From Bacilli bacterium (GTDB taxonomy: Bacteria > Bacillota_I > Bacilli_A > RFN20 > CAG-826), in assembly GCA_045132035.1 (NCBI GenBank), contig JBGURM010000092.1, positions 7,641-71,640 on the forward strand: DNA of 64,000 nt, given 5' to 3'. The notes under the pieces are model-generated. The model was given only the letters and a program-made list of their open reading frames with translations, made no database searches and was not told where the DNA came from. Every line of letters starts with the position of its first letter. Positions within the stretch are counted from its first letter, which is position 1. The translations under genes and the position numbers were made by a program. Positions 970 to 42,352 of this stretch are shown piece by piece.

Positions 970-1956
970 TTAACCCTTAATACCGGCTCTTCCAACACCA
1001 CGCATGATGTATTTACGGAAGAAGACGAATAATAAGAAGAGTGGGACTGTAACAAGAACTGTCGCTGCCATACGATATCCGTATTCAGTAATTCCTGTAT
1101 CAGCGTTTGTGAAGCTTGATCCACGTAAACCGTTTGAGATTAATTGGTAAGCTTCGTTTTTACAAACAAGTTGAGGCCACATATATGAATTCCAAGTTCC
1201 CATAAATTTGAGAATCGAAATTGAAATAAGTGTTGGAGCAGCAAGAGGAACCATGACTTTCCATAAGTAGTTCCAATCGCTCTTACCATCAACTTTGGCC
1301 GCTAAATATAATTCATTAGGGATTTGTTTGAAGTTTTGTCTTAATAAATAGATATAGAAGACACTAACCCAGAAAGGAACAATCATACATGCATAAGCTT
1401 GTAGTAATGTTTGACTGTCACTTTCAATCCATCCAAATGATGCGACGGTGATGTAGTTAGATAAGACCATCATTTCGCCAGGAATCATCATTGTCATAAG
1501 TAAGATTGCAAACACTGTTTCTCTACCTTTGAATTTAAGTCTAGAGAAGGCAAATGCCGCAAAGACTGTAGTAAGAAGTGTACCAATTGTTGAGAAGATA
1601 GCGACAACAACTGTGTTAACCATATAAGTTGAGAAATCAAATTTTTGGAAAACATACACATAGTTACTCCACATAACGATTTCTGGGAAGTAGGTTTGTC
1701 TACCACCAGTAGACATACCAGTGATTTCATCTAATGATTTAAGTGAGGTAATAATCATCCAATAGAATGGGAAGATTACGAGTAACGCTAATGCGACAAT
1801 AAACGCATAGGTAATGATTGTTGAAATAATCTTTGTAACTTTTTCAGCCTTTTTGATTGTTTCAACAGTTTTGCCGGCTTCTTTAATAGAAAGTGTAATA
1901 TTTTGGTTTAAATTTTGACCACGAAAGTTGTTATAAGTTTTTGCCATAAACAACAC
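970..1956 (-). CDS. ABC transporter permease (MalG/UgpE-like inner-membrane subunit)
   Basis: Polytopic membrane protein with the EAA-type loop AAKVDGKSDWNYLWKVMVPLAAP. Adjacent to a second permease and the ATPase. Confidence 0.8.
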   Translation of the reverse strand: MLFMAKTYNNFRGQNLNQNITLSIKEAGKTVETIKKAEKVTKIISTIITYAFIVALALLVIFPFYWMIITSLKSLDEITGMSTGGRQTYFPEIVMWSNYVYVFQKFDFSTYMVNTVVVAIFSTIGTLLTTVFAAFAFSRLKFKGRETVFAILLMTMMIPGEMMVLSNYITVASFGWIESDSQTLLQAYACMIVPFWVSVFYIYLLRQNFKQIPNELYLAAKVDGKSDWNYLWKVMVPLAAPTLISISILKFMGTWNSYMWPQLVCKNEAYQLISNGLRGSSFTNADTGITEYGYRMAATVLVTVPLFLLFVFFRKYIMRGVGRAGIKG

Positions 1957-1959
1957 CTC

Positions 1960-3093
1960 CTAGTAATAAACTCTACTCTTCGACACTTTAGATTGAATAA
2001 GTGTGAAGATAAGAATCGCAGCGAACAATAGGACTGCACCGGCAGCAGCGTATTGAATCATTGTTTGGCTATCATGTTCAAGAATATCGTAAACATAATA
2101 GACAACTGTTAATAAGTTCTTTTCAGTAGAGGCACCACCACTACCTGCGGTACTTGGAGCACCAAAGATAGAAATGATGGAGTTATATTCCTTAAACGCT
2201 CCGATAAATCCAGTAATCATTAAGTATAAGATTTGAGGAGAGAGCAATGGAACGGTGATTCTAAGGAGGACTTTTCCTTTAGAAGCACTATCGATTTGAG
2301 CGGCTTGATAATATTGTTTATCAACGCCTTGAAGACCTGATAATAAGATTAAAATCTTAAATGGAATGGAGTTCCAAACAATGTAGATACAAAGTGGCAC
2401 CATCGCGGTCCAGTGTTCAGCGTTTTGAATCCATGCGATATTTGTATGGAACAAATTGTTAATAATACCTTGTCTATCAAAGATAACTGCGAAGACCATA
2501 CCAATAGCGATACCATTAGTAACATAAGGTAAGAAGAACACTGTTTGTAAGAATTTTTGGAACCATTTAATGGAGTTAAGAGCAACTGCGATAATAAGAG
2601 CTAAGAAGATTGATAATGGAACAGTCACGAATGCGATAAGAACTGTGTTAGGGATCGCAAAGTTCACAAAGTTAGTTTCTGTCGCTCTTTGTCCACTAGC
2701 GTTGATATATTCTTTTAAGCCAAGAACAACGCCAAAGTTATCAAGTGTCAATCCAGTACCATATCCTTTAATATAGCTATACTCTTTCGCGAACGCGATA
2801 TAGATTGTATTAATTAAAGGATAGAGCAAGAAGATTGCCACCAAGATGATAACTGGTGCTAGATATAACCATGCTTTCCAGTTATTTTTGCTAGCAACAT
2901 CATCAATTCCACTGACACGATAGCTCTTTGTTGGTCTTTTTCCAACTAAGCGAACCACCACGTCTTTTTCAGAATCATACCCTTCAGAAATATCTGGGAT
3001 TCCAGTGTCAAATAAGGATTCCGCAGCTCCAGGTTGATCAGTAGAAGCTGATTTTTTGCTATTGAAAAGTTTTTTAATTTTTTCTAATAACAT
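1960..3093 (-). CDS. ABC transporter permease (MalF/UgpA-like) with an N-terminal extension
   Basis: EAA loop AAQIDSASKGKVLLRITVPLLSP and multiple TM helices. Sits 9 nt downstream of the ATPase gene. Confidence 0.8.
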   Translation of the reverse strand: MLLEKIKKLFNSKKSASTDQPGAAESLFDTGIPDISEGYDSEKDVVVRLVGKRPTKSYRVSGIDDVASKNNWKAWLYLAPVIILVAIFLLYPLINTIYIAFAKEYSYIKGYGTGLTLDNFGVVLGLKEYINASGQRATETNFVNFAIPNTVLIAFVTVPLSIFLALIIAVALNSIKWFQKFLQTVFFLPYVTNGIAIGMVFAVIFDRQGIINNLFHTNIAWIQNAEHWTAMVPLCIYIVWNSIPFKILILLSGLQGVDKQYYQAAQIDSASKGKVLLRITVPLLSPQILYLMITGFIGAFKEYNSIISIFGAPSTAGSGGASTEKNLLTVVYYVYDILEHDSQTMIQYAAAGAVLLFAAILIFTLIQSKVSKSRVYY

Positions 3094-3102
3094 ATGGCCT
3101 CC

Positions 3103-5013
3103 TTATTTTGTGTAAATTCTTTCTTCTGTTTCGCCATCAAAGATGAAGATTTTATGAGGTTTAACTTTAAATGCAACTGGTCCTGGAAGAACTGTGTCAT
3201 CAGCAGAAATAATTGCTTTGAAAGTTGGTTTTGTACAATTTTCGTTATTAGCAACAACACTAATATCACGACCCATAACTTGGATCATTTCACAATTAGC
3301 ATGTAAGACATCTTTGTCTTTATCACTTGCAAGAACAAATCCTTCTGGTCTAATAGCGACATAGACATCTTTATTACCAATTTCTTCATTTGCAGTATAA
3401 ACACAATCGTTACCAACAAAGACTTTCTTTCCTTCAACACGTCCATAGAAAACGTTGATTGGTGGAGTTCCTAAGAATTGAGCAACGAATAAGTTAGCTG
3501 GTGAATTGTAAACATCTTGTGGTTTACCCATTTGTTGCATTTCACCGAGTTTCATAACAACGATTTGATCGGAAATGGACATCGCTTCTTCTTGGTCATG
3601 GGTAACGAAGACAGAAGTAATACCTGTTTCTTGTTGAATACGTCTAATTTCTTCACGTGTTTGTAATCTTAAACGAGCGTCTAAGTTAGATAATGGTTCA
3701 TCTAATAACAAGACGCGTGGGTGTTTAACTAAAGCACGAGCAATAGCGACACGTTGTTGTTGACCACCAGAAAGTTGTGATGGTTTACGTTGTAAATATT
3801 CATCAACTTGAACGAGTTTTGCAGTTTCGTAAACGATATCGCGTCTTTCTTCTTTGGTGAGCTTACGGTGGCTGATTGCTTGAGAAACTGCAGTTTCAAC
3901 ATCAACAAGTTGGAATTTTTCCGCTAATTCTTTTAATAATTCAGCAGATTGTTCTTGTGATGTCTTTAATAACTTAAAGTAAATTTTAGTGTGTTCTTTA
4001 TCAAAGTAAATTTTGAAATCAGCAACGCCACATTTATGTTCCGCTAAGAATCTCTTAACGTTTTGAGTAAGTTCTCTATTGTTAACTGAAGATACTGTGA
4101 AATAAGGATTTTCATATGGATAAGAGGCTTTAACGGCTTCAAACCATTCATTAATTCTTAAGTGTTTGACACCTAAAACACGCGCCATGATTTCATAACC
4201 ATGTTGTGTCTTGGTGATAACTACTTCAGCTGGTTTTCCAAATTCACTAGAGGTTGAATTGAAGAGTTTGATTGTTTCATCAATCGAACTTGTTGAGAAG
4301 TTCTTTCCTAAACGGCCACGGAAAGAAGCATCGATTGTTTCATTTTCAGTGATTATTTCCACTGTCGCACGGAATGTTGTATCAAATAAAGCGTCACTTG
4401 ATTGAACTTCATCTTCGCTTTCAAGTTTAACATCAATAATCTTGTTAACATTATCTGCGAATAACGCTTTTGATGTTTTGGAAACATTAACTAATTCAAC
4501 TTTAATTTCTAAGTTGCGTTCTTTTTCTTGAACATCGAGCTTGAATTGTTTTCTTGAATAACCGGTTTTAGCCGCGAGTGATTGGAAAGCTTTTTTAATT
4601 CCATTAACATCATCGTCTTCCTTCATTTGATAGGAATAAGCAAGATGATATGTGAAGAATGTTTCAAGAGGAACTTCGACTTGTAAACTTGTTAATGGGA
4701 ATTCAATATTCTTATAAATTGTCATATGAGGATATAATGCGTAGTTTTGGAAAACTAAACCAATACCTCTTTTTTCTGGAGATAAGTTGGTAACTTCTTG
4801 ATCACCAAACCAAACTTCACCAGATGTTGGAACTTGTAATCCTGAAATCATATAAAGTGTAGTTGATTTACCACATCCTGATGGGCCAAGAAGACCGACA
4901 AGTGTGCCATCATCAACAACAAAATCCAAGTCCTTAACAGCGATGGTATCACGAATATTCTTTTTGGCATCGCCTGGGAAGATTTTTGTTAAACTCTTAA
5001 TCTTAATTTCCAT
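3103..5013 (-). CDS. ABC transporter ATP-binding protein (MalK/UgpC-like), 636 aa, with a ~280-aa insertion between the Q-loop and the ABC signature
   Basis: Walker A GPSGCGKST, Q-loop VFQNYALYPH, signature LSGGQQQRVAIARAL at residue ~414, Walker B LLLDEPLSNLDA, H-loop VTHDQ, and a C-terminal MalK-type regulatory domain. Confidence 0.85.
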   Translation of the reverse strand: MEIKIKSLTKIFPGDAKKNIRDTIAVKDLDFVVDDGTLVGLLGPSGCGKSTTLYMISGLQVPTSGEVWFGDQEVTNLSPEKRGIGLVFQNYALYPHMTIYKNIEFPLTSLQVEVPLETFFTYHLAYSYQMKEDDDVNGIKKAFQSLAAKTGYSRKQFKLDVQEKERNLEIKVELVNVSKTSKALFADNVNKIIDVKLESEDEVQSSDALFDTTFRATVEIITENETIDASFRGRLGKNFSTSSIDETIKLFNSTSSEFGKPAEVVITKTQHGYEIMARVLGVKHLRINEWFEAVKASYPYENPYFTVSSVNNRELTQNVKRFLAEHKCGVADFKIYFDKEHTKIYFKLLKTSQEQSAELLKELAEKFQLVDVETAVSQAISHRKLTKEERRDIVYETAKLVQVDEYLQRKPSQLSGGQQQRVAIARALVKHPRVLLLDEPLSNLDARLRLQTREEIRRIQQETGITSVFVTHDQEEAMSISDQIVVMKLGEMQQMGKPQDVYNSPANLFVAQFLGTPPINVFYGRVEGKKVFVGNDCVYTANEEIGNKDVYVAIRPEGFVLASDKDKDVLHANCEMIQVMGRDISVVANNENCTKPTFKAIISADDTVLPGPVAFKVKPHKIFIFDGETEERIYTK

Positions 5014-5033: not shown

Positions 5034-7793
5034 TTATTTAGTGCCATCATCAACGGCATCTTCGTTAAGTTTTAATTTTTTGGCTTGTCTACGTTGTTTA
5101 TTCGATTTGAATTTGCCAACAATAAACTTGATAAAGTAGCCAATAATCACGATTGAAATAACACCAGGAACAACGATAAAGACGTCGATTGGGTTATGAA
5201 CCGCGACTGCATTACTAAATAGTCCTGCTCTAAAGATGATAAAGAGGACAGTAATTGAAATGATTAATAAACCGACATATCCAAGAACAGCGGTCTTGAC
5301 ATAAGCTTTTGGTTTCATTCTTCTAAATTCATCGTTCTTATATTTTTCTCTTAAAACAAAGAATAGGACTGTTGCTCCGATTGCATACGCTGCTAGAGCA
5401 ACTAACTCAAAAATAAGAACAAACATGAAGATATCGTAAACTTTTGCGTTTGCGTTTTCAGGCATGACATCAATCGCACCAAAGTGGATGGATAAATCAG
5501 TACGTCCAACTTTAGTTGATTGAGCAATATTCCATAAGTGAATATTAATAGTAAATCCAACGATTTCTAATTGTTTTAAATTCTCAATTGCGAAATCATT
5601 ATATTTCTTGCCGCCTTCTTCATAAGTAATATCACTATTATTTATTAAATAAGAAAGCTTGTTACCAGAATCTTTTTCAAGAACAACAACAGAGTTAGGT
5701 GTCTTGATTGGCGTGGTAACTGTCACAATCTTATTTAAAGATGGTGAGTAATATGTTAAACGGTAGAATGAGTTATTGATGTTATAGACTGCATAACGGA
5801 CAGAATAAGAACCATCGTTAATCTTGTCTTGAACAGAGTTTTTAACATCTTCACTGATTCCTTCAAACCAGTAGGATGGTAAAACCTTATCAACATTCAT
5901 TGAAATCATTGAATAGCCAAAGAATTTTGTTAAACCAGTGAATTTATATTTAACAACTGAATTGACATTAACTTCGTTCTTATAACGTTTGCTAGCAGAA
6001 GCAGTAAAGCTAACTTTGGTGTCTGGATAACGATAGGTGAGATATTTCTCCACTGCGTGTCCTTCTTCAACTGTTTTGGTTAAAATCTTAGTTGATCTTG
6101 CACGATAAATGTTATAAACATCAACAGAAGTAGCGTCAAACTCTTCGTGGTCCTCTAATAAAATATCAAATGAACGAGAAAGAGGTTGAGTTCTAACTGA
6201 ATCATAATAAGAAGTTGAAGTTGAAGTTGGTTCTTCAGATTGTAATGGGAATTCATACCACACTTTTCTAATAGAGTTGTCTCTTGTGTTTCTAATATCA
6301 TAAGAAACAACAAGTGGTTTTTGGAATTCTGGAGTTACATCTGGAAGAATAGTAACTGTATGTCCTTGTGGACACTTTCCTTCAACTAGGTCAGATAATT
6401 GGTAGATTTCATTACAGTGTTCACAGAAGAATGTATCGTGTTGAGTATATTTATATCCTAATATAAAGGTTGTATCTTCGTTTGCTAATCTGAACATTCT
6501 GTCAGTTGAAGTGACATTTGCGTTTCTCTTACTTTCATCAAAAGCAACGCCCCATTCAACTTTCGCTCCGCTTGAAACCCATGAATCAGACCAAAGAGCA
6601 GGTTTAGAAGTTGCTTCACATTTAAATGTTACTGAAGCAGGAACATCAGTGAACGCTTTTGATTCAATTTCTTCGATTCCTTTTGGAATGTAAATTTCAG
6701 AGATATTGCCAATATATTGTTCGTTATCATCGAATTGGTCGAAATCAAGTGCGTGTGAGGCAATTCTATTATTAGCGATAGTTAAATCACTGCCATATTG
6801 CATTGTTTCTGGAACATAAATTGTTGATGCATTATCAATTAATCTTAAAACATAACCTTCTAAGGCGTGAGGAGCGGATGAACCATCTCTTACTGGATTA
6901 TCAAAATCGCCAGTCCAATTAACATCGTCCACTACTGCGTAAACGTTATTAGTGCTGTTACCAGCAGAGTTAGATAATTTACCAAATGTTTTTTTAGCGG
7001 TACCAATTGATTGGTCGATTTGGTTTGTTTCATTACCTGTACTACGACCGGTTGTTTCTTTTCCGACTAGTTCATAACCCCATTCGATATTTGATGGATC
7101 GATATCACCAAACCAATCGTTAGCCCATCCAGCTGGTTTTGAAGCTTCGCAAATCTTCACTTTGACATTTGCAGGGACATTTTGGAATGCTTTAGACTCA
7201 ATCACTTCGATTCCACTAGGAATGATTAGTCTTTCAAATTTTGCTTCTTCCAGTCCTTTTTCAAAAACAAATGCATCAGAAAGGATTCTATTATTTTTAA
7301 TAGAGAATGTGTTTCCGTAACTTACTGTTTGAGGAATAACGAATTCTGTAATTTTTACTCTAGATTCTCCTGAGCCGTAATCCAAAGTAAATGTTGCAGC
7401 GTTTGTCATTTCAATTGTGTAACCATTGAATTGTGGATTTGTCTTATCACTCAAAGATGGTTGAGATTCAGAACCAGAATAATCTGGGTCATCAATAACA
7501 ATGTAAGCATTCTTCTTTGGAGTGCCCCATCCAGTAACGCTAACACTTGTAAAGGTGATGGTTGCTGATTTACTTGTTGGAGTACTTGTCAAAGATTGAA
7601 TATCTACCGTCAATTCATTCCTGCCTAGTTCAACCGAAGAATTAAAAGATGCTTCAGAATATGGAGCATCATTACCATCGCTTAAAGCGGAGGCTTTCTT
7701 GACAGAGATAGAAGAGAAATTGGCTGCAGAAACGGCCATAACAAAAGAAAAAATAGTCGTAATTGCAGCACCAAAGAATTTTTTATTATTCAT
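5034..7793 (-). CDS. Large surface protein: signal peptide, two duplicated BspA-like LRR (LRR_5-type) modules, a CxxC...CxxxH motif, and a C-terminal multi-TM anchor
   Basis: N-terminus MNNKKFFGAAITTIFSFVMAVSA. Internal duplication (...IIPSGIEVIESKAFQNVPANVKVKICEASKPAGWANDW... and ...IYIPKGIEEIESKAFTDVPASVTFKCEATSKPALWSDSW...). CEHCNEIYQLSDLVEGKCPQGH motif. Hydrophobic C-terminal segments. Confidence 0.5.
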   Translation of the reverse strand: MNNKKFFGAAITTIFSFVMAVSAANFSSISVKKASALSDGNDAPYSEASFNSSVELGRNELTVDIQSLTSTPTSKSATITFTSVSVTGWGTPKKNAYIVIDDPDYSGSESQPSLSDKTNPQFNGYTIEMTNAATFTLDYGSGESRVKITEFVIPQTVSYGNTFSIKNNRILSDAFVFEKGLEEAKFERLIIPSGIEVIESKAFQNVPANVKVKICEASKPAGWANDWFGDIDPSNIEWGYELVGKETTGRSTGNETNQIDQSIGTAKKTFGKLSNSAGNSTNNVYAVVDDVNWTGDFDNPVRDGSSAPHALEGYVLRLIDNASTIYVPETMQYGSDLTIANNRIASHALDFDQFDDNEQYIGNISEIYIPKGIEEIESKAFTDVPASVTFKCEATSKPALWSDSWVSSGAKVEWGVAFDESKRNANVTSTDRMFRLANEDTTFILGYKYTQHDTFFCEHCNEIYQLSDLVEGKCPQGHTVTILPDVTPEFQKPLVVSYDIRNTRDNSIRKVWYEFPLQSEEPTSTSTSYYDSVRTQPLSRSFDILLEDHEEFDATSVDVYNIYRARSTKILTKTVEEGHAVEKYLTYRYPDTKVSFTASASKRYKNEVNVNSVVKYKFTGLTKFFGYSMISMNVDKVLPSYWFEGISEDVKNSVQDKINDGSYSVRYAVYNINNSFYRLTYYSPSLNKIVTVTTPIKTPNSVVVLEKDSGNKLSYLINNSDITYEEGGKKYNDFAIENLKQLEIVGFTINIHLWNIAQSTKVGRTDLSIHFGAIDVMPENANAKVYDIFMFVLIFELVALAAYAIGATVLFFVLREKYKNDEFRRMKPKAYVKTAVLGYVGLLIISITVLFIIFRAGLFSNAVAVHNPIDVFIVVPGVISIVIIGYFIKFIVGKFKSNKQRRQAKKLKLNEDAVDDGTK

Positions 7794-7886
7794 ATGCAGT
7801 TCCTCAGGTAACTTTGTTCACGAATATTATACGTGAGTGTATGTATAGTAGTCAAACAATTAAATGTACGTATGTTAAAACTAACA

Positions 7887-8948
7887 CTACTCTTTATCTA
7901 TCAATTTGAACGGGATTGCTTCCTTGTGATCTAAGGAATATTCAACAGCGATTTCATATTTGCTGAAGTAGACTTTTTGCTTATTTGTGTCAATTTCAGT
8001 TAACCCAAGCATATAGTCTGGAAAACCTTGTTTCCTCTTTGAAAACACCATCATGGAAAATGAAATAATGAATGGTAAACCAAAGGAAAATAGGCTTAAT
8101 ACTAGCTCTCCAAAGAAGAAAATAGCCCATCTAGCCGTATATCTTCCAAATGAAGGATTAAGCACTTTAGAATCAACAAGTCCAATTTGCATAAGCCTCT
8201 TTCCAAAGGTTGATCTTCCTCTTCTAAAAATCAAAACAGGAGGGACAAAATAGATAATCACACCAGAAACAAACACTGCAGTTGGGATTTGAATAAAAAA
8301 CAAAATGTTGGATAAAGTTTTAAGCGCAGTTTGATATTCAGGGAAGAAAGAAATTAAAAAACCACCGCAATTGGTTAATGTGTATTCTCGATAAAAATGG
8401 GTGTAATAATATTCGTCTCCCGCTTTAGCGTTTGGGTTACGAACAATCTTCTCCACCATTACGCCTCCTTCTTCTACAGTTGTCTTAATGAAAAGGTTTC
8501 TACCTTCTGAATCTAAAACTTTAGAAGATAGTCTACTTTCATCATAATTCTTCACCAATTCGTCATATTGTTCGGTTGTGCCATTATTTTGAACATAGGT
8601 AATAAAGTTATCGATCGCTAATTGGCAACGATACACCCTAGTGTGATAAGCGGTATCGTTATTGTTGTCTAAATATGTTGAAATGTTCTCCCATGTTTTT
8701 CTTTTGGAAGAATATTCAAATAACCCAGAATCTTTTCTATAAGTCGCTACGACATTATCAGCAGCGCGATATTGAGGGGTTACTTCCGCTGTTTTTTGAA
8801 CAGCAATAAACATCGCAATAAAAGTTAAGAAAAGGAAAATGATATCAAGGAAATTACCAAAACATCTCTTGATGAATGGTGGTTGCTCATAAACAAGATT
8901 AATCGAATTTTCAGGAGCGTCTATTACTTCAAGGGATTCTTTTTCCAT
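7887..8948 (-). CDS. RDD-family-like integral membrane protein with a large extracytoplasmic insertion
   Basis: N-terminal IKRCFGNFLDIIFLF (R...D) and later FGKRLMQIGLVD resemble RDD-family motifs. Multiple TM segments. Confidence 0.4.
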   Translation of the reverse strand: MEKESLEVIDAPENSINLVYEQPPFIKRCFGNFLDIIFLFLTFIAMFIAVQKTAEVTPQYRAADNVVATYRKDSGLFEYSSKRKTWENISTYLDNNNDTAYHTRVYRCQLAIDNFITYVQNNGTTEQYDELVKNYDESRLSSKVLDSEGRNLFIKTTVEEGGVMVEKIVRNPNAKAGDEYYYTHFYREYTLTNCGGFLISFFPEYQTALKTLSNILFFIQIPTAVFVSGVIIYFVPPVLIFRRGRSTFGKRLMQIGLVDSKVLNPSFGRYTARWAIFFFGELVLSLFSFGLPFIISFSMMVFSKRKQGFPDYMLGLTEIDTNKQKVYFSKYEIAVEYSLDHKEAIPFKLIDKE

Positions 8949-10145
8949 TTACTTAATATCTCCTCTTTTTTTCGCTAATTCAAGTTCTTTCATCTCTTCT
9001 TTTGCTTTAATGATCCCATCTACTTCTTCTGAAGAAATCATAACTGTTTGACTAAGTAAATCAATCGCAGACCTATTAAATGAATGGAATAAGAGAATAA
9101 ATAATCCCGCTAATAGAGCAACAACAGAAATGACGCTTAATATTGGAAGCACAGGTAATCTCAAAGAATAGATAAATGTAGTATAACTTAATGGTATGAA
9201 CATAATAAATGGCAAATCAAACACCAAATAGTATAGCGAAGTTAAAAATGCTTCTGGTTTATTAATTGGTTGAAGATGTTTATAATTAAGCCTATCAATT
9301 TTCATAATTGATTGAGTTGGAGTGTGCAATGATCGATTGATCAAAGGATAAATGACATATACGATTAGCCATCCAATAACGTAAGAAATCGCACAACACA
9401 CCGATAAAGTCGCATAATATTTATTAGCGATACTAGTCATAATTGCCTGATTTTCATTAAATGAATTACCAAGCGAATCCTTTAAATCATTCTTATAAAT
9501 GTCTTGGATTACGCATCCAAATAAAGCAGAGAATAAATCGTTAATTTTTTCATAATACTCTCTTCCTTTTGAGCCTAAATTCTCTCCAGGCATAAAATAA
9601 ATTCTTACTTCCGCAATAACTTCTTCTTTTAAAGAAACGCTTGTAGAAGTAACAATAAATAAATTAGCTTCTTTATTATGATTCAAAAACAAATCATAGT
9701 AGGTTATAGAGTCTGAGCGGATATTATTGTAATAAGTCCAAATGACTTCATTTTCTAATTTATGTGAATATTCAGGGTATTCTGGATTTAAAGATGTTTC
9801 ATCTGGGAATGTATAATACGCAAGAAACCTATTAAATGTATACGCTAAATTACTATCGAAGTCATATTTCTTATAATTACCACTAGCGTTTTCATCGGTT
9901 TTATAAAAGAGCAACTGATGTTCATAAAGAATATTGTCTCTTTTTTTCTCAGCAGCGTAAGATCTTTCAGTTTCAGGTTTAACAAAAATTGAACAAATCG
10001 GCATAACCGCAATATTCATGATGATAATGCTAATAATGAAGTGAATGAAAAAGTCCCCGAGGAAAACGAGGATTCTTCTCCATTTTGAGATTGGATGTAT
10101 ATCTATTTCTATTACTTCTTTTTTCTTGATTTGATCAGAATACAT
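8949..10145 (-). CDS. RDD-family-like integral membrane protein, paralogous architecture to the downstream gene
   Basis: KWRRILVFLGDFFIHFII (R...D) at the N-terminus, a TM-rich C-terminus, and start/stop abutting the neighbouring gene. Confidence 0.35.
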   Translation of the reverse strand: MYSDQIKKKEVIEIDIHPISKWRRILVFLGDFFIHFIISIIIMNIAVMPICSIFVKPETERSYAAEKKRDNILYEHQLLFYKTDENASGNYKKYDFDSNLAYTFNRFLAYYTFPDETSLNPEYPEYSHKLENEVIWTYYNNIRSDSITYYDLFLNHNKEANLFIVTSTSVSLKEEVIAEVRIYFMPGENLGSKGREYYEKINDLFSALFGCVIQDIYKNDLKDSLGNSFNENQAIMTSIANKYYATLSVCCAISYVIGWLIVYVIYPLINRSLHTPTQSIMKIDRLNYKHLQPINKPEAFLTSLYYLVFDLPFIMFIPLSYTTFIYSLRLPVLPILSVISVVALLAGLFILLFHSFNRSAIDLLSQTVMISSEEVDGIIKAKEEMKELELAKKRGDIK

Positions 10146-10154
10146 TCAAACACC

Positions 10155-11378
10155 TTAATTAGTGTATTTTCTTTTTATTAATAACAAACTAACCCCTAAA
10201 ATCGATAATGTTGCTAAAATCGTACTCGTTGTTGCAATATTACCTCCACAGCCTCCAGTAGAAGCCGGGCTTTCTTTACCACTACCAACTGTTATTTCAC
10301 AAGACGCATATAAGCCGTCATTTGAATAAACACTAACAGTGGCTTTTCCGTCTTTTAATCCAGTAACTAAGCCACTACCATTAACAGATGCAACACTATT
10401 ATTGTCACTAATCCATGATAATGATGGGAGAACTGCACCAGTTGGAACTGGACTTGGAGTTAATTGGACTTTTCCACCTACTTCAATAGAGTAGGAACTA
10501 TAGTTAAGAGTAATACTTGTTGCTTTTGTTTCTGGATCAGGAGGAATAACAGAACCTGAGCAAGCAGCTTTTGTGGCCGCGTTATAATTACCCCAAATTC
10601 TACAAGCATATTCTGGGTGATCAATAAATGGATTTCTATTTCCTTGACCTCCACTTGCAGTTTGAATTGCTTCGTTTCTATTGAGTTCTGCTCTTCTAGC
10701 AATATCGTTAGCGCCAGTAAATGAGGTGTTATTTGGTTGATATTGTAAGTTCCACGCTAACATTTCACTTAGTGAACCCATACAGTTAGGGTGAGAACCA
10801 GCTCCATGATAATTAAGTGGATCATCAATAAGACTTAAACTTAAATCTGCCATTGCTGCATAGAAAATAATTCTAGAAGCAGAGCCACGGTAATATTCAA
10901 CATATTTACCTGGATCATATGAAGAAACACCATATCCTTTTGAACCTCTATCACTATTGGTAGAAGTCGCTGATGGTCTTACCATATGAGCGTCATCTTC
11001 TACTGCGTCTCCACCACGGATATTTGGCCAAACATGCTCTCTATTCCAAGTGTTTCCACTGTCCCAATTTGGTCCGACTAAAGCATTATCATAAAAGCTT
11101 AAAATTTTGCCTGAACCATTTGGATCAGCGTCACTAGTTTTAGCGAATGTTCTCATTCCAGCGTAACCAACTAATCTAGTTCTTTTAGTTGTATTTAATT
11201 TATTTAGTGCTTTGAGAAGATCTTCTCCAGTTAATGTATCACTAATAGATGCATAATAATCACCTGCTGCGGCAGTAACTGGTTCAGCTTTCCTTTCTCC
11301 ACTTACCACTCCAGTAGCGACAAGACCCATACTTAAAATCGCTAATCCTGCTAATAAAAAATGTTTGATGTTTTTCAT
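10155..11378 (-). CDS. Secreted endonuclease-I-family (EndA/Vvn-like) nuclease with a Big_2 Ig-like domain and C-terminal membrane anchor
   Basis: Signal peptide MKNIKHFLLAGLAILSMGLVATG. Motifs NREHVWP, DDAHMVRPSATSTNSDRGSKGYG and NRNPFIDHPEYACRIW match Endonuclease_1 family signatures. Big_2-like segment (KVQLTPSPVP...KATVSV). C-terminal hydrophobic tail. Confidence 0.7.
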   Translation of the reverse strand: MKNIKHFLLAGLAILSMGLVATGVVSGERKAEPVTAAAGDYYASISDTLTGEDLLKALNKLNTTKRTRLVGYAGMRTFAKTSDADPNGSGKILSFYDNALVGPNWDSGNTWNREHVWPNIRGGDAVEDDAHMVRPSATSTNSDRGSKGYGVSSYDPGKYVEYYRGSASRIIFYAAMADLSLSLIDDPLNYHGAGSHPNCMGSLSEMLAWNLQYQPNNTSFTGANDIARRAELNRNEAIQTASGGQGNRNPFIDHPEYACRIWGNYNAATKAACSGSVIPPDPETKATSITLNYSSYSIEVGGKVQLTPSPVPTGAVLPSLSWISDNNSVASVNGSGLVTGLKDGKATVSVYSNDGLYASCEITVGSGKESPASTGGCGGNIATTSTILATLSILGVSLLLIKRKYTN

Positions 11379-11433
11379 AATCTTATAAATCCTTTAAAAT
11401 CATTATAATATTTTAAATATAAAATATCGACCA

Positions 11434-12960
11434 TTAAATCTCGATGAGAGAATTTCTATTATGTTGAGGTAAACTAGAGGAAAAGTCATTTGGATTAAGC
11501 GCTAATCCATCTTTATATCCATTTGTCTTTAACCAATTTTTCAAAATAACACGATAATTATCATTTAAAACACCGATAGGAGTTCCACTAAATGAAGAGA
11601 AATAATCATAATATCTTCTAACATTCGTGTGGAACAAAAGGAAATCGATAGTCGCTATTTTATATTTTTTATTTGGGTCGATTCTTTTATCAAACGATGG
11701 ATTAAAGTAGACATTATTATAGTTAGTCACTTCATAATAAATATCTCTACCAGAAACCTCAGCAACAAAAGCGAAATTATCAAATGGGAATGACTCATAT
11801 AAATCAGAATAATCCCATTTTCCATATGGCAAGTAATGTCTAGCGGTGTTGCAATATGAAAGAATAATGTCATCATATCCTTCACTAACTGCTTCATCAT
11901 AGATTGCTTTACACATCAAATTGACTGCAGTTTCACTTTGAGCAAAATAACTTGTTACATTACTTGCAACCACTTCATTAGCAGCTTCTTCACAGTCGCT
12001 AGAGTATTCATTAATCAAAGCTTCAATATTCGTATCAATAGAAGTAATACGGCTATTAATGCTATTAGAATCGATGACTTCCACTGTAGTGTTTGTAACT
12101 TTTTTAGATTGTCTATCATATGTTAATTTAATATTTCCAATTAATTCTCCATATGCGCCAAATTGAACATATGTTAATCTTCCTTCACTTGACTGTTCAT
12201 ACCGATGAGTGTGACCACAAAGAACTAAATCAACATATTCTCCTAAAGAATTATTTTTAACATCATCTTGACCAGTATGAACAGACGCAATAACTAAATC
12301 ACATCCATTTCTTCTTAATTCAGTAGCTTCTTGCTTGATTATATCAATATGGTTTTTAAAACAAATGGTCTCTGTGTAATATGAAGTAATTGAAGTAATT
12401 TGATTCTCTCCAATAACTCCCACTATTCCAACTTTTAAACCGTTCTCTAAAGTATAAATAACGGACTTCCTACCGATATTTGATTGTTGTGTATTGCCAA
12501 CTGTGTGACTAGCAAAGTCATAATCATAGACATTTGCCGCTAAAACTGGAGTGACATAACCATCATATTCTCTAGCGGTGTTAGCCACTATTTTTTCTAT
12601 TCCCCAGTCAAAATCATGATTACCTACTGTTCTAGCGTCAACTCTCGCGTAAGCGTAAACATCATTAATTAATTGCCCATGGTTATAATTTGAATAAATT
12701 GAACCTTGCCAATCATCACCTTGAGAAATAACTAAAGTGTTTTCTTTTTCACCTTGTTCTTTAATATATGTTCCTAATCTTGCTAAACCAATTCTTCCAC
12801 TTTCAGGATAAATCGCTCCATGGAAATCATTAAAAGCGACGATATTGATTGTTTCTTCATCTTTAGTAGTTGTTCCTCCACCTTGTCCTCCAGTTGGACC
12901 ACAAGAAAAGATTGATAACACAGTCATCATAAAGAAAATGGAAACGATTCTTTTTCTCAT
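11434..12960 (-). CDS. 5'-nucleotidase / metallophosphoesterase family lipoprotein (UshA-like)
   Basis: Lipoprotein signal ...LSIFSCG. Calcineurin-like motifs NIVAFNDFHG, GDDWQGS, GNHDFDWG. C-terminal 5'-nucleotidase-like domain. Confidence 0.7.
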   Translation of the reverse strand: MRKRIVSIFFMMTVLSIFSCGPTGGQGGGTTTKDEETINIVAFNDFHGAIYPESGRIGLARLGTYIKEQGEKENTLVISQGDDWQGSIYSNYNHGQLINDVYAYARVDARTVGNHDFDWGIEKIVANTAREYDGYVTPVLAANVYDYDFASHTVGNTQQSNIGRKSVIYTLENGLKVGIVGVIGENQITSITSYYTETICFKNHIDIIKQEATELRRNGCDLVIASVHTGQDDVKNNSLGEYVDLVLCGHTHRYEQSSEGRLTYVQFGAYGELIGNIKLTYDRQSKKVTNTTVEVIDSNSINSRITSIDTNIEALINEYSSDCEEAANEVVASNVTSYFAQSETAVNLMCKAIYDEAVSEGYDDIILSYCNTARHYLPYGKWDYSDLYESFPFDNFAFVAEVSGRDIYYEVTNYNNVYFNPSFDKRIDPNKKYKIATIDFLLFHTNVRRYYDYFSSFSGTPIGVLNDNYRVILKNWLKTNGYKDGLALNPNDFSSSLPQHNRNSLIEI

Positions 12961-12963
12961 GTC

Positions 12964-14028
12964 TTATTTATCCTTAATGTAGTCAAGTATCATTGATGAT
13001 AAAACTTCTTTTAGGACTTTTCTTTCTTCCTTAGGAGTGTTTTTCCATTCAGCAGGGAGCTTTTTTAATGCTTCTTTTAAAGAGGCAAGATTCTTTTCTT
13101 TTGTAGAAAGTCCATCAAAATTAAGTCTTTCAAGTAAATTGAATAATGTCGCTGTAAATTCTTTTTTTGTCGCTAAATCATATTTTACCACTGTTGAGTT
13201 AAGAGTATTAACAATTCGAGTGGATCTTTTTGAAAAGTTTTTAACATATTCAAAGTGATTATCAATTATTAACCAACTAAATGTATCATGTTGCATTATT
13301 AACGAATTATTTGAATTCACAATATGATATTCAACTGGTTCAGTGATTAATCTTCCAATTATCGAATCAACAGGAGCGTAAAATTTAATAATTGGAGAAA
13401 TCTTTTCATATTCATTATCATAGAAACGCTTACTATAATTAGGAGAATCGAAAGCGTATATCCACATTAAGTTATCTTTTTTAGTTAAATATTTAGACGC
13501 CGTTATCGCTAGTCTTCCTCCTTTAGAGTGACCAACAACATATATTTTCTTTTTCTTATATTTATGAGCGATAAAAGATAAATATTCAATCGCTTCTATT
13601 TCACTAGGAGTAATATCTAAAAAAGACATATTAATATCTTCTTTAATACCTTCCACTGTTCCATCCGTTCCACAAAAAGAGACGACAATATAATCTTTAA
13701 ACGCGAAAGAAACGGCCTGGAACTGTTTTTCAAGCTCCGGATTGTTATTTCTTTGATAATTAATTAATTTCATGTTAGAGAAGCGATTTGAACCCGCTAC
13801 TCTAGATAATATACGAAGATATTCTCTTCTTCTTTTCATTAGATGAGAATCATCATAATATTTGAGGGCGTTTAAAATATCTGAATTGGAGTTATCTTTG
13901 TTAATTAAAAGGAAATCACCATAATGAGGATACGCTAAAGATGCGAAAATCATCGCATCAATTTCGTTAAAGGGTGATTCTATTAAACTTATATCTTGAT
14001 ATTTATCTAGATAATCATCCAAATACAT
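12964..14028 (-). CDS. Alpha/beta hydrolase, lipase-like (DUF2974/Mbeg1-like type)
   Basis: Nucleophile elbow VVGHSKGG with upstream VVSFCGTDGT. Confidence 0.5.
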   Translation of the reverse strand: MYLDDYLDKYQDISLIESPFNEIDAMIFASLAYPHYGDFLLINKDNSNSDILNALKYYDDSHLMKRRREYLRILSRVAGSNRFSNMKLINYQRNNNPELEKQFQAVSFAFKDYIVVSFCGTDGTVEGIKEDINMSFLDITPSEIEAIEYLSFIAHKYKKKKIYVVGHSKGGRLAITASKYLTKKDNLMWIYAFDSPNYSKRFYDNEYEKISPIIKFYAPVDSIIGRLITEPVEYHIVNSNNSLIMQHDTFSWLIIDNHFEYVKNFSKRSTRIVNTLNSTVVKYDLATKKEFTATLFNLLERLNFDGLSTKEKNLASLKEALKKLPAEWKNTPKEERKVLKEVLSSMILDYIKDK

Positions 14029-14033
14029 ATTAG

Positions 14034-14285
14034 TTATTCACCAATATATTTCATGAATTCTTCTTGATGAGTATCATCAGAATGTTCTTCGACAATTACT
14101 TTCTTTTTAATATTACGAATTTCAAAAGGAATCTTTCCTTCTCTAACAGATTGAGAAAGGAATAATGAGATTGCAGTTGATAAATCTAAACCAAAAGATT
14201 GGAATAGCTCCACTGCTTGTTTCTTTAATTCTGGATCTAAAGAAATATTTGTGTTAACTTTTTTTGCCATATTCATAAACCTCAT
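14034..14285 (-). CDS. RelB/DinJ-family ribbon-helix-helix protein (antitoxin-like). No cognate toxin gene is adjacent, so it may act as the operon regulator.
   Basis: MAKKVNTNISLDPELKKQAVELFQSFGLDLSTAISLFLSQSVREGKIPFEIR closely resembles DinJ. The likely true start is the 3rd ATG (MAKKV) with a GAGG RBS. A TTGACA-N17-TATATA-like promoter lies upstream at ~14300-14340. Confidence 0.6.
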   Translation of the reverse strand: MRFMNMAKKVNTNISLDPELKKQAVELFQSFGLDLSTAISLFLSQSVREGKIPFEIRNIKKKVIVEEHSDDTHQEEFMKYIGE

Positions 14286-14383
14286 ACTTATTGTATATAA
14301 AAATAATATGATATGTCAAGTTTATGCACATAACATACACATAAATCATATTTGTGACATATATAGCAAAGTTGTTTCAATAT

Positions 14384-14413
14384 CAAAAAAAGAAGACCCC
14401 TAAGGATCTTCTA
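14384..14413 (-). terminator. Rho-independent terminator downstream of tuf
   Basis: AGAAGA-loop-TCTTCT stem followed by a T7 run on the minus strand. Confidence 0.6.
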
Positions 14414-29831: not shown

Positions 29832-29974
29832 GTTTTCTTGACCTCCTTTTCAATTTGTTTGGTTTTTTGAGGCTCCAATATACAGTGAGAATAAAATGTA
29901 TTTTTCTTCACCTAGGTAACATTATTAAGACTCAAACGTCCGTTACTGTCTTTGGTATATTGAAATCTTTTTAA
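29832..29974 (-). promoter_or_regulatory. Putative L10 (rplJ) leader. A 143-nt structured intergenic region sits in the position of the autoregulatory L10-leader.
   Basis: Position between rplA and rplJ. Called on position only; motifs were not verified. Confidence 0.3.
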
Positions 29975-31683: not shown

Positions 31684-34600
31684 TTAAATTGGTGCGTGTA
31701 ATCCTGTTGAATCTAACGTATATCCATTAGAGAAAGTAACTAGATTTCCACCAGAATATGACGCAACTGTTCCTAATAATATCGCATTACCACTAGCGTC
31801 TTCATGCCAGAAAAGTAATGTTCCTTTAGCGACTGTATCTGTTCCAGTTACAACGCCTGTAGAGGTAAGATCACTCAACGTTTCAACATAGAAATAAATA
31901 TCATCAATTTGTAATTGAGCTTCGTATTTTCTCCACTCACTTGTCATACTCAAACTTGTACTGTATTTATTGTAAGTAAAGATTTTTAACGCCGAGTCAT
32001 TCTTAACCATGTAGTTATTACTGCTAGTGTTATACGAATTATTTCCTAGATTAAAGCCATTTGCTCCTCCAGGAAGCTGTAATTCCACCAAACTTGGACA
32101 ATTGTTAAATACACCATTATTATAGGCTGTCCATCGGCAACTTGGATTTGTCACTCTAAACGCTTCTAAATCAGAACAAGAAGCAAAAGCTGAGGCACCA
32201 AGACTAATCTGACTTGATGTTATTTTCATCGTCACAATATCAGAGCCGGAGAATGCACTACCACCAATACTCGTTACACTAGAAGGTAAAACAATATTGC
32301 CACTTGAGTCAATCACTCCAGTGTTTGCAAAGGCCGATCCTTTAATTGAAGTTAAAGATGTAAATTTGCTAAATTCAAATTGTTCTAGTTTTCCACATCC
32401 AGAGAACGCACTTGCCTCAATAGAAGTAATACCAATCGACGCTCCGTCAACTGTAACATGTTCTAAGTTGGTGCATCCTTCAAATGTTGATTCTCCTAAT
32501 TTGTCATAAAGAGTGGAAGGAAGACTAACATCTACCAAACTTGTGCAGCCACTAAATGCTCCAGTTTTAACTATATGGACTTGGCATAATGCTGAAGTTG
32601 GCCAAAGAATATTGGTAAGGCCAGTAGAAGCAAACGCTCCATCTTCGATTACAAGAGTTCCGGTGACATTTCTAAAATCTAACGTTGTTAAATTAGAACA
32701 TCCATTGAATGCATTGGAGTTTATTGTTACTGTTCCAGTAACATTACCAAAGCTAACTGTTGCTAAACTATCACAACCAGTAAAAGCACTTGATCCGATT
32801 GTCAAAGATCCTGATAACGAGCCAAAATTCACACTTGCCAAATCTCCACAAGACTCAAATGCACTGGAGCCGATTGTCAAGTCGGTTGATACAGGAGTAA
32901 AACTAATTGATGCTAGATTTTCACAATCCTTAAACGCTGAAGCTCCGACAGTAAAACTAGAATTATTAGCGGCAGTAAATGATTCGATAGATGGGTTGTT
33001 TTTAAAAGCCTCATCACCAATACCAGCATATTGGGAATTAGTTAAATTCAAAGCGTGAGCAACAGGTGTATCGCCTGTCACGTAATATGTTAAATCAGTG
33101 TTTTCAACACTATCGAAGACACCTTTTGGAATTATATCTCCAGGAGAAACAGGGAATTCAACGTTTGCAAGTTCTTCGCACCCTTTCATCGCATATTCAG
33201 GAAGATTAAGAACGTTACCAGCGATGGTGTCTAAGTTGCACTTAAATGCTGTTCTATCGTAACTTAAAACAATCTTACCTAAGTAAACATAACTATCCGT
33301 ATCAAACTCCATCGTTCCACTTCTAGATGATTTAGTGCCGATTGGAGAAAATAATGGTTGAGGAATTGTGTTAACACCAGATTGAGTTGGATTGCCACAA
33401 ATTAATGATCTAATCCATACACCCATCTTGAATGCACCAAACATATATGGGTTTGTTTTATATAATCCATTAAACTTAATGCCATTTTTTGGTGATCCAA
33501 CAGCGGATGTATCAGCAGCACCTTCTGCTGTATAATCAGCAGCATCTCTATTTAAAACCAGCAATAATCTATCTTTATTGAATGAAATACCAGCGTCGTT
33601 TGTTGAATATAACGCACATGTATATAAAGGTGTTCCTGCAGTGGCAGAAGTATAAGTTGTGACAGTGTAATAATTAGAACTTCCACCAGCAAAAGTGATT
33701 TGTCTAAGATTTAATGCGTTAGCGAAGATGGATTGAATTTTATCTTCTGGAGAAGCAACCACCAGCTTGCTTGGATCTTCGATTGATCCGCTTGGAACTG
33801 TAACTGAATTTTCAAAGAATTTACACGTGCTTGGAATATTTAAAATAGCTTTAACACCACAGAACAAGAAAGCACTCTTGCCAATATATTCAAGGGATGA
33901 TGGCATTCCTTCTACAGGCGTATTATTTCCGCTATACGACTTAATAGTCGTAACACCGTACGTTCGAATAAACGCATAATCTCCAATGGATTTAATTGTG
34001 TTAGGCAAGACAATCGTTGTTAAATCATCAAAGCTACCTACCGCCTTAGTAGGACTTGTATCCTGACCATCACAGAAGCAGCAAGAGAAAGCTGCATCTC
34101 CAATTTTATTAACGGTACAAGTTCTATTTGTTCCGTTGATTTTGGCAGTAACAGTTTCTTTAACTGTAGCGGTTGTTAAGCTAGCAGAATTGTCATAAAG
34201 ACTATACATATAGTTCGACATTGTAGCGACATAGTTTTCACCAACTTTGCCACAAACATAAGAGCATTTATCTTCTATAACTAATTCACGACTTGTTTCA
34301 CTAGAAACGCCAACTTCAACATTAATACCATCAATAGTTTCTTTATAATGGACATTATCATATACTGGTGTTTCTTGGTTGATTTCAAAAGTATTTACTG
34401 ATTCATCGCTAGAATAATCAGACGTATAGCTTGAGCCAAAAATAAATCCAAAGTGCTTTGTTGAGGCTTCTTTTGTTGCAAAATATGCTTCATTGCCAAC
34501 TGTTTTCCATTGGGTAGCCAATGATAATGCTTTATTCTCAAAGCTTAAGTTTGTCCAGTGCCCGTCTTTTTTGTCACTATACATATTAGTGCCATATGTG

Positions 34601-36780: not shown

Positions 36781-36798
36781 ATAGCTTTCCTCTCCTTT

Positions 36799-39700: not shown

Positions 39701-39861
39701 CCAGTACCACGTTCAAAGTAAGAACGAAGAGAAACCTCGCCATAAAAGCCATCACTTTCAGCATCCTTGATATATGCGGATAAAGTGAAAGGAACGATCA
39801 TACTCACAAAAAGAAGAGTACAAATTCCAATATATGCTATTAAAACTTTTTTCGATTTCAT
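36799..39861 (-). CDS. Large secreted protein (1020 aa) with a TasA/camelysin-like N-terminal region
   Basis: Signal anchor then LSAYIKDAESDGFYGEVSL (compare camelysin AYFSDKEVSNNTFAAGTLDL). Beta-rich D/G/T-rich body. Confidence 0.45.
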   Translation of the reverse strand: MKSKKVLIAYIGICTLLFVSMIVPFTLSAYIKDAESDGFYGEVSLRSYFERGTGRPKGTNGPSDPGDPYVITRPRHMYNLSRLQGLGVFKESTYFQLGLEGLAGDLTGKPLCYLDDTSTTTVPFLDMSDSDYDYEPINAIGSEAVPFYGEFDGQGLEIKNLTVYADPQDAGLFGYTAHGSSIHDLFLSNVTINSLGYTDSFAGLYGPSAPVAVGTSFVYDIEGSESDTFINTDTGKFKFLEFDAEDFFEWDESSGDPMPSIDYDVPVVSFTSTNTNYKYKFLISGDFLTYTDGNSEVSVDIEEVYRFFKKEKTEATTFPLRASSSVSLIASTTDNYGLDHSKVVMSLDFDFALNAKDSSILTMNAHLGSEHTNNIGLLIGHCDGSVSDCYVYNGRFEMNNGNTITGLSTYHAMENGSNYGLIGLIGGTVHNIAAEESDAATTTGKDIGVLDFTSVYNEIIDSHSFDTSTSLPGGGVSYTPSSSLKYRDFLRINGSGQHVTLERDSVSFRPQKIISNTDLGIFTIATNESGSGMDYEASNDLEKSVIRNEDVSVDSNYYIYYATGEYQKDKGPTFDKFRNALNSNTPSSFHPGYHFPNYDQITVESFEQRNWHQNYIVRFKMDYNYRTGKGFYFSDVDKNTVGGSFMSKYFESVLVDKDGHTIPASANSGKSGVMLRNSLGQEIRYFASSFATPDLSGTGMKMYCIDNDDYEKPVANMINFEIKTNTANVTIVAGLVDRTKPAAVGIYKIGDERDEYLGKPYVNRTFEDPDFAFFMPKDDHLAYFDYKVDNQNVGQIGVYNSDGSTFTPATIHTNATIPNTYGTTEYGYSSGKTRLYAHTFKLEPGRYCIGSASGVNRDSGKEGIAKLFYVCAQGQTDGQITFEDNAFASRDEVKNVDFVKKECYSYNPGTGVVTTNITLDKEHPVTVYNPSDSRVDNQRCYVALVNSDRSTFDAAPANVSFVYNQATNKFVISTDYISAVTYIAVSNYAHSHPVTGLSNATVTLFNEGDSTDDKIVYPEI

Positions 39862-41423: not shown

Positions 41424-41425
41424 AA

Positions 41426-42313: not shown

Positions 42314-42352
42314 AAAAAGCCAGTCGCCTTATTAGTAGTTAGGCAGCTGGCT
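42314..42352 (-). promoter_or_regulatory. Terminator-like hairpin plus U-run inside the 5' leader of the fibre operon, immediately upstream of the RBS. Possible attenuator.
   Basis: Minus strand AGCCAGCUGCC-loop-GGCGACUGGCU (10/11 bp) then UUUUUAAAUAGUAGAGGGGCAAAAUG. Confidence 0.45.

Follow-up and report, generated by a model that had tools for sequence, protein, structure and literature searches.

What are six closely packed genes on the minus strand of a Bacilli contig for, and where does the unit to which they belong end? The genes lie at positions 7887–14285 of a 64,000-nt stretch of contig JBGURM010000092.1, the whole of which is called the window below. They encode a ribbon–helix–helix (RHH) protein, an Mbeg1-like hydrolase, a 5'-nucleotidase-family lipoprotein, an endonuclease-I-family nuclease and two RDD-family membrane proteins (RDD1 and RDD2). 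An earlier note, made from the bare sequence, took them for a complete operon that scavenges extracellular nucleic acids. The analysis described here leads to a different picture: the six genes are the front part, not a self-contained whole, of a composite locus, which comprises at least 13 genes and probably couples nucleic-acid breakdown at the cell surface to uptake by an ATP-binding cassette (ABC) importer. Confidence in the architecture of this locus is high; confidence in its function is moderate.

According to a listing of open reading frames (ORFs), positions 7887–14285 contain six minus-strand ORFs of 83, 354, 508, 407, 398 and 353 aa, separated by gaps of 5, 3, 55, 9 and 0 nt, just as the earlier note had described them. 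Each is preceded by a Shine–Dalgarno-like sequence. Since the minus strand carries most genes of the whole window, the shared strand of the six is uninformative; it is their tight spacing that is informative. The proposed family assignments of all six proteins were confirmed by domain searches (for RDD1, via profile comparison), and the promoter that had been placed upstream is indeed present, the site reading TTGACA-18-TACAAT. A terminator scan revealed no convincing terminator between the six genes, and none between RDD2 and the gene that follows. Past position 7887, the same strand continues with a 93-nt spacer and the genes for a 919-aa membrane protein (P919), a 636-aa ABC ATPase, two permeases and the start of a binding lipoprotein; read-through from RDD2 into the 919-aa gene is possible. 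Two claims of the note had to be abandoned here. The unit does not end at 7887, nor do the six genes form a single module, be it evolutionary or regulatory; the RDD genes belong to the importer that follows rather than to the nuclease cassette. On the other side, fusA and tuf are found upstream of the cassette. The features are collected in Table 1.

Table 1. Features of the composite locus, in order of transcription; positions refer to the window.
Feature	Position	Strand	Remarks
tuf intrinsic terminator	14391..14412	-	9-bp stem, then T run; between cassette and str operon
Direct repeat TATGTGTAT-G-TTATGTGCAT	14324..14343	-	abuts -35 box; candidate RHH operator
Sigma-70-type promoter-like site TTGACA-18-TACAAT	14290..14319	-	11/12 matches
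Orphan DinJ/RelB-family RHH protein, 78 aa	14034..14270	-	longest ORF from 14285
Mbeg1-like (DUF2974) alpha/beta hydrolase, accessory gene	12964..14028	-	E = 7e-50, GHSKG
UshA/5'-nucleotidase-family metallophosphoesterase, predicted lipoprotein	11434..12960	-	Metallophos + motifs
Endonuclease-I-family nuclease + Big_2 + C-terminal anchor	10155..11378	-	Pfam + profile alignment
RDD1, divergent RDD paralogue	8949..10145	-	profile comparison; beside RDD2 in all relatives
RDD2, RDD-family membrane protein	7887..8948	-	RDD 48 bits
Internal promoter-like site TTGACT-18-TATAAT	7826..7855	-	ahead of 919-aa gene
919-aa membrane protein (P919)	5034..7793	-	homologue always between RDD2 and ABC ATPase in relatives
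ABC-importer ATPase (UgpC/MalK type) with ~240-aa insert	3103..5013	-	domain searches
ABC permease, BPD_transp_1, UgpA/MalF-like	1960..3093	-	domain searches
ABC permease, BPD_transp_1, UgpE/MalG-like	970..1947	-	likely start ATG 1947; relatives 325 aa
Solute-binding lipoprotein SBP_bac_8, first 307 codons	1..923	-	cut by window start

The division of the locus into parts becomes apparent from gene order in related contigs (L-numbers), which come from rumen and hindgut metagenomes. The close relatives are L082/L083, L002/L086 and L084/L085; more distant lineages were found via the ATPase (69–78% identity) or via RDD2 (37–48%). In L082–L086 and L002, the order is tuf, RHH and Mbeg1 (neither of them in every contig), nucleotidase, nuclease, RDD1, RDD2, P919, ABC genes and solute-binding protein. 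The tuf gene is 95–98% identical in L082–L085, and the contigs of L002 and L086 start downstream of it. In L087, L088, L089, L090 and L091, the order is RDD1, RDD2, a large protein of 681–1017 aa, the ABC ATPase, two permeases, two solute-binding proteins and an SNase-domain nuclease; L092 starts in the same way and reaches its contig edge after the ATPase gene. In L087, L089, L091 and L092, tuf lies directly upstream. The slot between tuf and RDD1 is occupied by Y_phosphatase3 (tyrosine-phosphatase family) in L087 and is empty in the other three. The same-strand order of surface nuclease, sugar-type ABC transporter and binding lipoprotein is found in the window and in ten related contigs.

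Because the RDD pair is kept with the ABC and SNase genes even where a lineage lacks endonuclease I, nucleotidase and RHH protein alike, it is best placed, on this synteny, in the importer–SNase core, with the four leading genes as a lineage-specific cassette at its head. The locus may then be pictured as two layers. An old conserved core comprises RDD1, RDD2, the large membrane protein, an Ugp/sugar-type ABC importer, two binding lipoproteins and the SNase surface nuclease, and usually sits directly after tuf. A variable head, between the tuf terminator and RDD1, in the window holds the RHH protein, the Mbeg1-like hydrolase, the nucleotidase lipoprotein and the anchored endonuclease I. Relative to L002, L082 and L084, identities are 61–64% for the nucleotidase, 59–75% for the nuclease, 45–91% for the 919-aa protein, 73–99% for the ABC genes and 95–98% for tuf; between close relatives, the exposed proteins (nucleotidase, nuclease and 919-aa protein) diverge much faster than their neighbours.

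Promoter-like sequences are conserved ahead of the six genes and after them. At the end of tuf, a strong hairpin is followed by a T run, and an equivalent hairpin lies 3' of tuf in every relative examined. After this terminator comes the cassette promoter, the best promoter-like site of the scanned region; both of its hexamers are kept in four related contigs (L082, L083, L086 and L002), all with the RHH gene. The window has a single copy of the direct repeat that adjoins the −35 box, where chance would give 0.01. It is kept in the same four contigs, in which the RHH gene is present, and is absent from L084, in which the RHH gene is absent as well. This makes the repeat a candidate RHH operator, and it should be regarded as a candidate at most.

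The second promoter-like site lies in the 93-nt spacer (7794–7886) between RDD2 and the 919-aa gene, a spacer whose length is kept similar in relatives (about 90–120 nt). Across nine lineages, and down to 37% RDD2 identity, there is hardly any change in its −10 box, CGTATAAT, six positions of which are invariant. In view of this conservation ahead of the 919-aa gene, the importer part very probably has its own transcription start point. The RDD pair may once have been expressed in yet another way: in L091 (8724–8800) and L092 (8669–8740), the RDD1 start codon follows so closely on the T run of the tuf terminator that there is no room for a promoter. As the T run leads straight into RDD1 in these two contigs, the arrangement suggests that the ancestral RDD pair was dependent on read-through of the tuf terminator from the str operon.

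Of the proteins of the cassette, the nuclease scores 53 bits with Endonuclease_1 (PF04231; cut-off 25) and 54.6 bits with Big_2. The motif examined comprises EH-x-x-P, with the catalytic His as general base, and D-x-H-x-x-x-P-x(5)-N-x-x-R, with the metal-binding Asn. Two alignments were used, one of 24 homologues at 49–76% identity and one of 20 more distant homologues at 34–56%. No exception is seen in either set at R113, E114, H115, W117, P118, D129 and N141, nor in the closer set at H131; R144 is invariant or nearly so. The catalytic His/Asn arrangement, on which the earlier note had made its assignment depend, is therefore present and invariant. When searched against solved structures, the single sequence gave Big_2 matches only or nothing, and Vvn was reached only with a distant-homologue profile. 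This broadened profile matches the Vibrio endonuclease I structures 1OUP, 1OUO, 2PU3, 2G7E and 2VND with E = 3e-14 (1OUP) to 1e-11. The catalytic-motif residues align to EHVVP and DLHNLTPAIGEVNGDRSN of the solved Vibrio enzymes, segments which we take to include the catalytic residue of Vvn, His80, and its metal ligand, Asn127. H115 is thus predicted to be catalytic, and N141 to be a metal ligand.

A hydropathy scan finds hydrophobic segments at residues 4–22 and 383–401 of the nuclease, which is predicted to be exported and membrane-anchored. Its C-terminus (window 10155–10290) reads GCGG-N-[IV]-x-TTS, followed by a hydrophobic helix and KRK, and the Cys is kept in most orthologues. This tail looks like a sorting or lipidation signal; none of the NCBIfam sorting-signal models matches it, and no protein outside the nuclease family carries it in the sampled loci. 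In gut Bacilli and in Acholeplasma-like and Izemoplasma-like metagenome-assembled genomes (MAGs), endonuclease I is often present as two to four tandem paralogues (L006, L010–L013, L022, L023, L026 and others). A general pairing of endonuclease I with a nucleotidase was considered and rejected. Among ~75 loci with endonuclease I homologues at ≤56% identity, the other genes of the locus are absent nearby, and only two have a distant nucleotidase homologue within 10 kb.

The nucleotidase matches Metallophos (32.1 bits vs 21.5) and carries five metallophosphoesterase motifs, namely DFHG45, GDDWQG81, GNHDF113, HTG228 and GHTH249. Its match to 5_nucleotid_C (PF02872) is borderline, at 23.5 vs 23.6 bits; the L084 orthologue reaches 31 bits. 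Among solved structures, it is closest to 5'-nucleotidases of eukaryotes and bacteria. The signal segment ends in a Cys (Cys20) within a lipobox-like [IL]-x-S-C sequence that is kept in three orthologues, and the protein is predicted to be a lipoprotein.

The importer and its surroundings can be followed beyond the window end in the near-identical contig L090. The two ATPases are 96% identical, and the binding-lipoprotein fragment of the window shares 97% identity with the first of the L090 binding proteins. Beyond it, L090 encodes a second binding protein, whose best solved relatives are UgpB proteins, an 824-aa SNase-domain protein and further genes; the SNase protein of the locus is read from this contig. 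The ATPase and permeases of the window score best with the UgpC, UgpA and UgpE models, in each case far below the equivalog cut-offs. In the ATPase, an insert of ~240 aa (window 3874–4641) splits the nucleotide-binding domain. The full-length ATPase is abundant in metagenomes, with >120 clusters at ≥69% identity, all of 635–645 aa. The insert alone was found in 11 representative clusters among 1.84 billion proteins, all of them apparently from this lineage; a homology of the insert to mycoplasma proteins, which was considered, found no support in this search.

The head of the cassette is formed by two genes whose products have no hydrophobic segment in a hydropathy scan and are predicted to be cytoplasmic. 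The RHH protein belongs to the RelB/DinJ family (TIGR02384, 53.7 bits vs a cut-off of 45.65), and its best solved relatives are E. coli DinJ structures 4Q2U (E = 1.7e-4) and 4ML0. Its most likely start is ATG 14270, with GAGG 9 nt upstream, rather than ATG 14285, because the latter lies only 4 nt past the −10 box and relatives are called at 77–78 aa; the protein then has 78 aa. As had been anticipated, it lacks a toxin partner: the ORF listing contains no toxin-sized ORF (RelE/YafQ-like, about 85–95 aa) adjoining it on either strand. The Mbeg1-like protein (DUF2974, PF11187; 170 bits vs 21.1) has its nucleophile elbow at residue 166 and no signal peptide. Mbeg1-like proteins are functionally uncharacterised; they owe the name to a functional screen, where NF-kB was induced by a clone from Gemella sanguinis (PMC6867899).

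Neither gene is a fixed part of the locus. The RHH gene is present in three of four close lineages and Mbeg1 in two; Mbeg1 is confined to the window, L001, L082 and L083, and both genes are absent from L084/L085. Going by this distribution, RHH and Mbeg1 are dispensable to the locus. For the RHH protein, an orphan that resembles an antitoxin and may act purely as a repressor, autoregulation as a repressor would be the most economical reading. In L003, whose nuclease gene is unlinked to an importer, a complete DinJ–YafQ pair is found just upstream of a membrane-anchored protein (6790–8184) with a metallo-beta-lactamase fold, as read by eye from HAHQDH; this protein lies 1.8 kb upstream of the nuclease.

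The conserved RDD pair is the most interesting part of the locus, which gives RDD proteins a conserved set of genomic partners. One RDD protein has been reported to be an Na+/H+ antiporter (PMC5996927), and the role of the domain has been described as unknown (PMC12419801). RDD2 passes the RDD model (PF06271) with 48.4 bits vs 24.1; RDD1 remains below the cut-off with 21.4 bits. It does align to the RDD2 profile over the RDD core with 93% probability, and is taken on this comparison to be a divergent paralogue of RDD2, which it adjoins in all relatives. The hydropathy profiles show four helices and a ~190-aa loop in RDD1, and three helices and a ~160-aa insert in RDD2, the extra segment being between helices 1 and 2 in both. 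All 272 homologues of RDD2 are from uncultured Bacilli or from MAGs labelled Erysipelotrichaceae. The predicted structure of RDD2 has a predicted local distance difference test (pLDDT) score of 87, and a fold search of solved structures with it gave no match.

The 919-aa protein has an N-terminal helix, a large ectodomain and a C-terminal multi-helix module with an acidic tail; searches with it returned only sub-threshold BspA-type leucine-rich repeat (LRR) matches and spurious ones. The C-terminal membrane module and its tail, KLKLNEDVxDDGTK (window 5034–5500), are far more conserved than the ectodomain, which suggests a conserved interaction partner. A bolder proposal, tentative and on balance unlikely, is that an ABC uptake machine coupled to nucleases has RDD1, RDD2 and the 919-aa protein as its own membrane subunits, beside the insert-bearing ATPase, and that this machine is wired to the str operon via read-through of the tuf terminator. 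If so, this would be the first functional context for RDD-domain proteins, and a new multi-component uptake system for nucleic-acid breakdown products in a lineage of uncultured gut Bacilli.

Taken as a whole, the locus would work as follows. The anchored endonuclease I, by means of His115 and Asn141, and the downstream SNase would cut extracellular DNA and RNA at the cell surface. The nucleotidase lipoprotein would strip phosphate from the nucleotides set free, and the binding proteins and the ABC importer would take up one or more of the products. The cassette promoter would probably be repressed by the RHH protein via the TATGTG repeats beside the −35 box, and the second conserved promoter would drive the 919-aa gene and the importer. 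Breakdown of extracellular nucleic acids had already been a reasonable suggestion for the six genes; it gains in credibility because an ABC importer and, in the near-identical contig L090, an SNase are encoded on the same strand.

Several observations weigh against this reading. The nucleotidase falls far below every NCBIfam equivalog cut-off (UshA, CpdB, NadN, Nt5e and SoxB; for UshA, 52 vs 600), and the match of its C-terminal domain is borderline, so that its substrate is not assignable. The importer is of the sugar/glycerol-3-phosphate class, and sugar and UgpB binding proteins, at E ~1e-5, are all that its own binding proteins match; a nucleoside or nucleotide as its substrate is unproven. 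No relative of the ATPase insert is detectable outside the lineage among the 1.84 billion proteins, and for this reason orthology with the mycoplasma importer is not established by this search. Outside a narrow clade, endonuclease I homologues are unlinked to nucleotidase, RDD or importer genes. Finally, given the internal promoter, expression of the importer may be separate from that of the six genes.

How do other explanations fare? That the six genes are one self-contained scavenging operon, in which the RHH protein serves solely as regulator and the RDD proteins provide the membrane components, would agree with their tight spacing, the single strong promoter upstream, the lack of a convincing terminator among them, and the position of the RHH gene, which comes first in the cassette of three of the four close lineages, also in the absence of Mbeg1. 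The idea is nevertheless distinctly improbable, given that the RDD pair accompanies the ABC–SNase genes where endonuclease I, nucleotidase and RHH are all lacking, that L084 and L085 have the nucleotidase and the nuclease without RHH, and that the string runs past 7887 without a terminator. Scarcely credible is a toxin–antitoxin-like or mobile two-gene module of RHH and Mbeg1 that has landed beside unrelated surface-enzyme genes. The RHH protein is a genuine DinJ/RelB homologue encoded 5 nt upstream of Mbeg1; a 45%-identical RHH homologue in L003 overlaps a YafQ-like toxin gene in a classic DinJ–YafQ pair, and Mbeg1 comes and goes among close relatives. Yet RHH is kept without Mbeg1 in L002 and L086 (in the latter, the gene after RHH is the nucleotidase), and three distant DUF2974 homologues, in Aerococcus, Lactobacillus and Monoglobus, have no RHH neighbour; a toxin–antitoxin pair was rejected on these grounds. 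A role in anti-phage defence or in a mobile element was likewise dismissed: the PADLOC defence models gave no match for Mbeg1 and two marginal ones for RHH, the viral contigs searched contained no Mbeg1 relatives, and a metagenome scan for such relatives found none.

A serious variant, which we nonetheless judge unlikely, retains the enzymes and changes the product: the locus would scavenge phosphate rather than nucleosides, with the enzymes freeing phosphate or organophosphates and the Ugp-like importer taking up phosphoesters (glycerol-3-phosphate, glycerophosphodiesters or nucleotides). It can draw on the UgpC, UgpA and UgpE matches of the ATPase and permeases, on the resemblance of the second binding protein to UgpB among solved structures, and on the variable slot, which holds phosphohydrolases of different folds (the nucleotidase here, Y_phosphatase3 in L087). 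In Vibrio cholerae, moreover, extracellular DNA (eDNA) is mainly a source of phosphate, via Dns/Xds and UshA/CpdB/PhoX (PMC4714964). It is weakened by the distance of all transporter matches from the equivalog cut-offs and by the weak binding-protein matches, and neither a Pho-box nor a phosphate regulator was seen. Very improbable is a mainly external role, in which nuclease and nucleotidase act on the host or the community (extracellular traps, biofilm DNA or adenosine) rather than serve nutrition, and the adjacent transporter is a coincidence. Mycoplasma surface nucleases do also dismantle neutrophil traps (PMC9740415), and the fast divergence of the nucleotidase, the nuclease and P919, at 61–77% identity against 90–99% for their neighbours, is as expected for exposed proteins under diversifying pressure. 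However, the relatives originate from rumen and hindgut, where immune pressure is less obvious, and a nuclease is encoded on either side of the importer even in deeply diverged lineages.

Should the coupling of surface breakdown to uptake hold, the nuclease-beside-importer logic of pathogenic mycoplasmas would extend to widespread uncultured Bacilli of gut and rumen, and different nuclease folds (endonuclease I and SNase) and phosphohydrolases would be plugged into one locus. The two binding proteins of unassigned ligand and the ATPase with its unusual insert are targets for biochemistry. For annotation, the RHH protein should not be called an antitoxin, and the six genes should not be called a closed operon.

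Elsewhere in the window, a cyclic di-GMP-I riboswitch (55.8 bits; 42339–42420, minus strand) lies upstream of four ORFs on the same strand (31684–42295). Three of these (289, 520 and 1020 aa) have no Pfam match, and the fourth encodes a 1698-aa BspA-type LRR surface protein. A ribosomal protein L10 leader (50.5 bits; 29882–29973, minus strand) is in its expected place ahead of rplJ and is ordinary.

Which parts of this arrangement are already known? The earlier statement that it had not been described is correct in part only, since operons of a nuclease and an ABC transporter are well documented in mycoplasmas. Their combination of SNase, sugar-type ABC transporter and binding lipoprotein, the closest arrangement on record, is co-transcribed in Mycoplasma agalactiae and syntenic in many mycoplasmas; import of nucleic-acid precursors is its long-standing proposed role (PMC3585158, PMC9740415, PMC12115388). 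These operons (M. agalactiae MAG_5030-5070, M. hyopneumoniae mhp379, M. pneumoniae MPN133 and M. hominis MHO_0730) share with the present locus a surface nuclease, a sugar-type ABC transporter (ATPase and two permeases) and a binding lipoprotein on one strand, as well as the proposed supply of the transporter with breakdown products; an SNase, too, is encoded in the wider locus here. They differ in that the nuclease of the cassette is an endonuclease I here and not an SNase (TNASE_3), and in that the present locus also has a lipoprotein of the 5'-nucleotidase family, a conserved RDD pair, a conserved membrane protein of 700–1000 aa and, through tuf, a link to the str operon. For the present locus, the conserved internal promoter suggests at least two start points of transcription.

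Nuclease and 5'-nucleotidase are also combined elsewhere. At the Gram-positive surface, Bacillus subtilis YhcR and Staphylococcus aureus Nuc and AdsA couple a nuclease to a domain or an enzyme of the 5'-nucleotidase family; YhcR is a single, sortase-anchored fusion of SNase and nucleotidase, and Nuc and AdsA are unlinked virulence factors. The genes for the enzymes of the Vibrio eDNA route are not known to be clustered. That route is established in V. cholerae and employs the endonuclease-I-family nuclease Dns and the UshA-type phosphatases UshA and CpdB (PMC4714964). It therefore uses the same two enzyme families in series, endonuclease I (Dns) and 5'-nucleotidase (UshA; PMC4714964, PMC3212620); its enzymes are periplasmic or secreted, whereas both are predicted to be membrane-tethered here and are encoded by adjacent genes, and the uptake system differs. 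With the periplasmic endonucleases I (Vvn and E. coli EndA; 1OUP, 1OUO and 2PU3), the nuclease shares the Pfam family and the catalytic beta-beta-alpha-metal motif. Unlike these, it is distant in sequence and fused to Big_2 and to a C-terminal anchor with the conserved GCGG. The RHH protein resembles the antitoxins of DinJ–YafQ and RelB–RelE in passing the RelB/DinJ model and in matching solved DinJ structures, but there is no toxin gene here, and it heads an operon of secreted enzymes. What distinguishes the present locus from these systems is that endonuclease I replaces or supplements SNase, that a nucleotidase lipoprotein is linked to it, that an RDD pair and a large membrane protein accompany the importer, and that the whole is attached to tuf.

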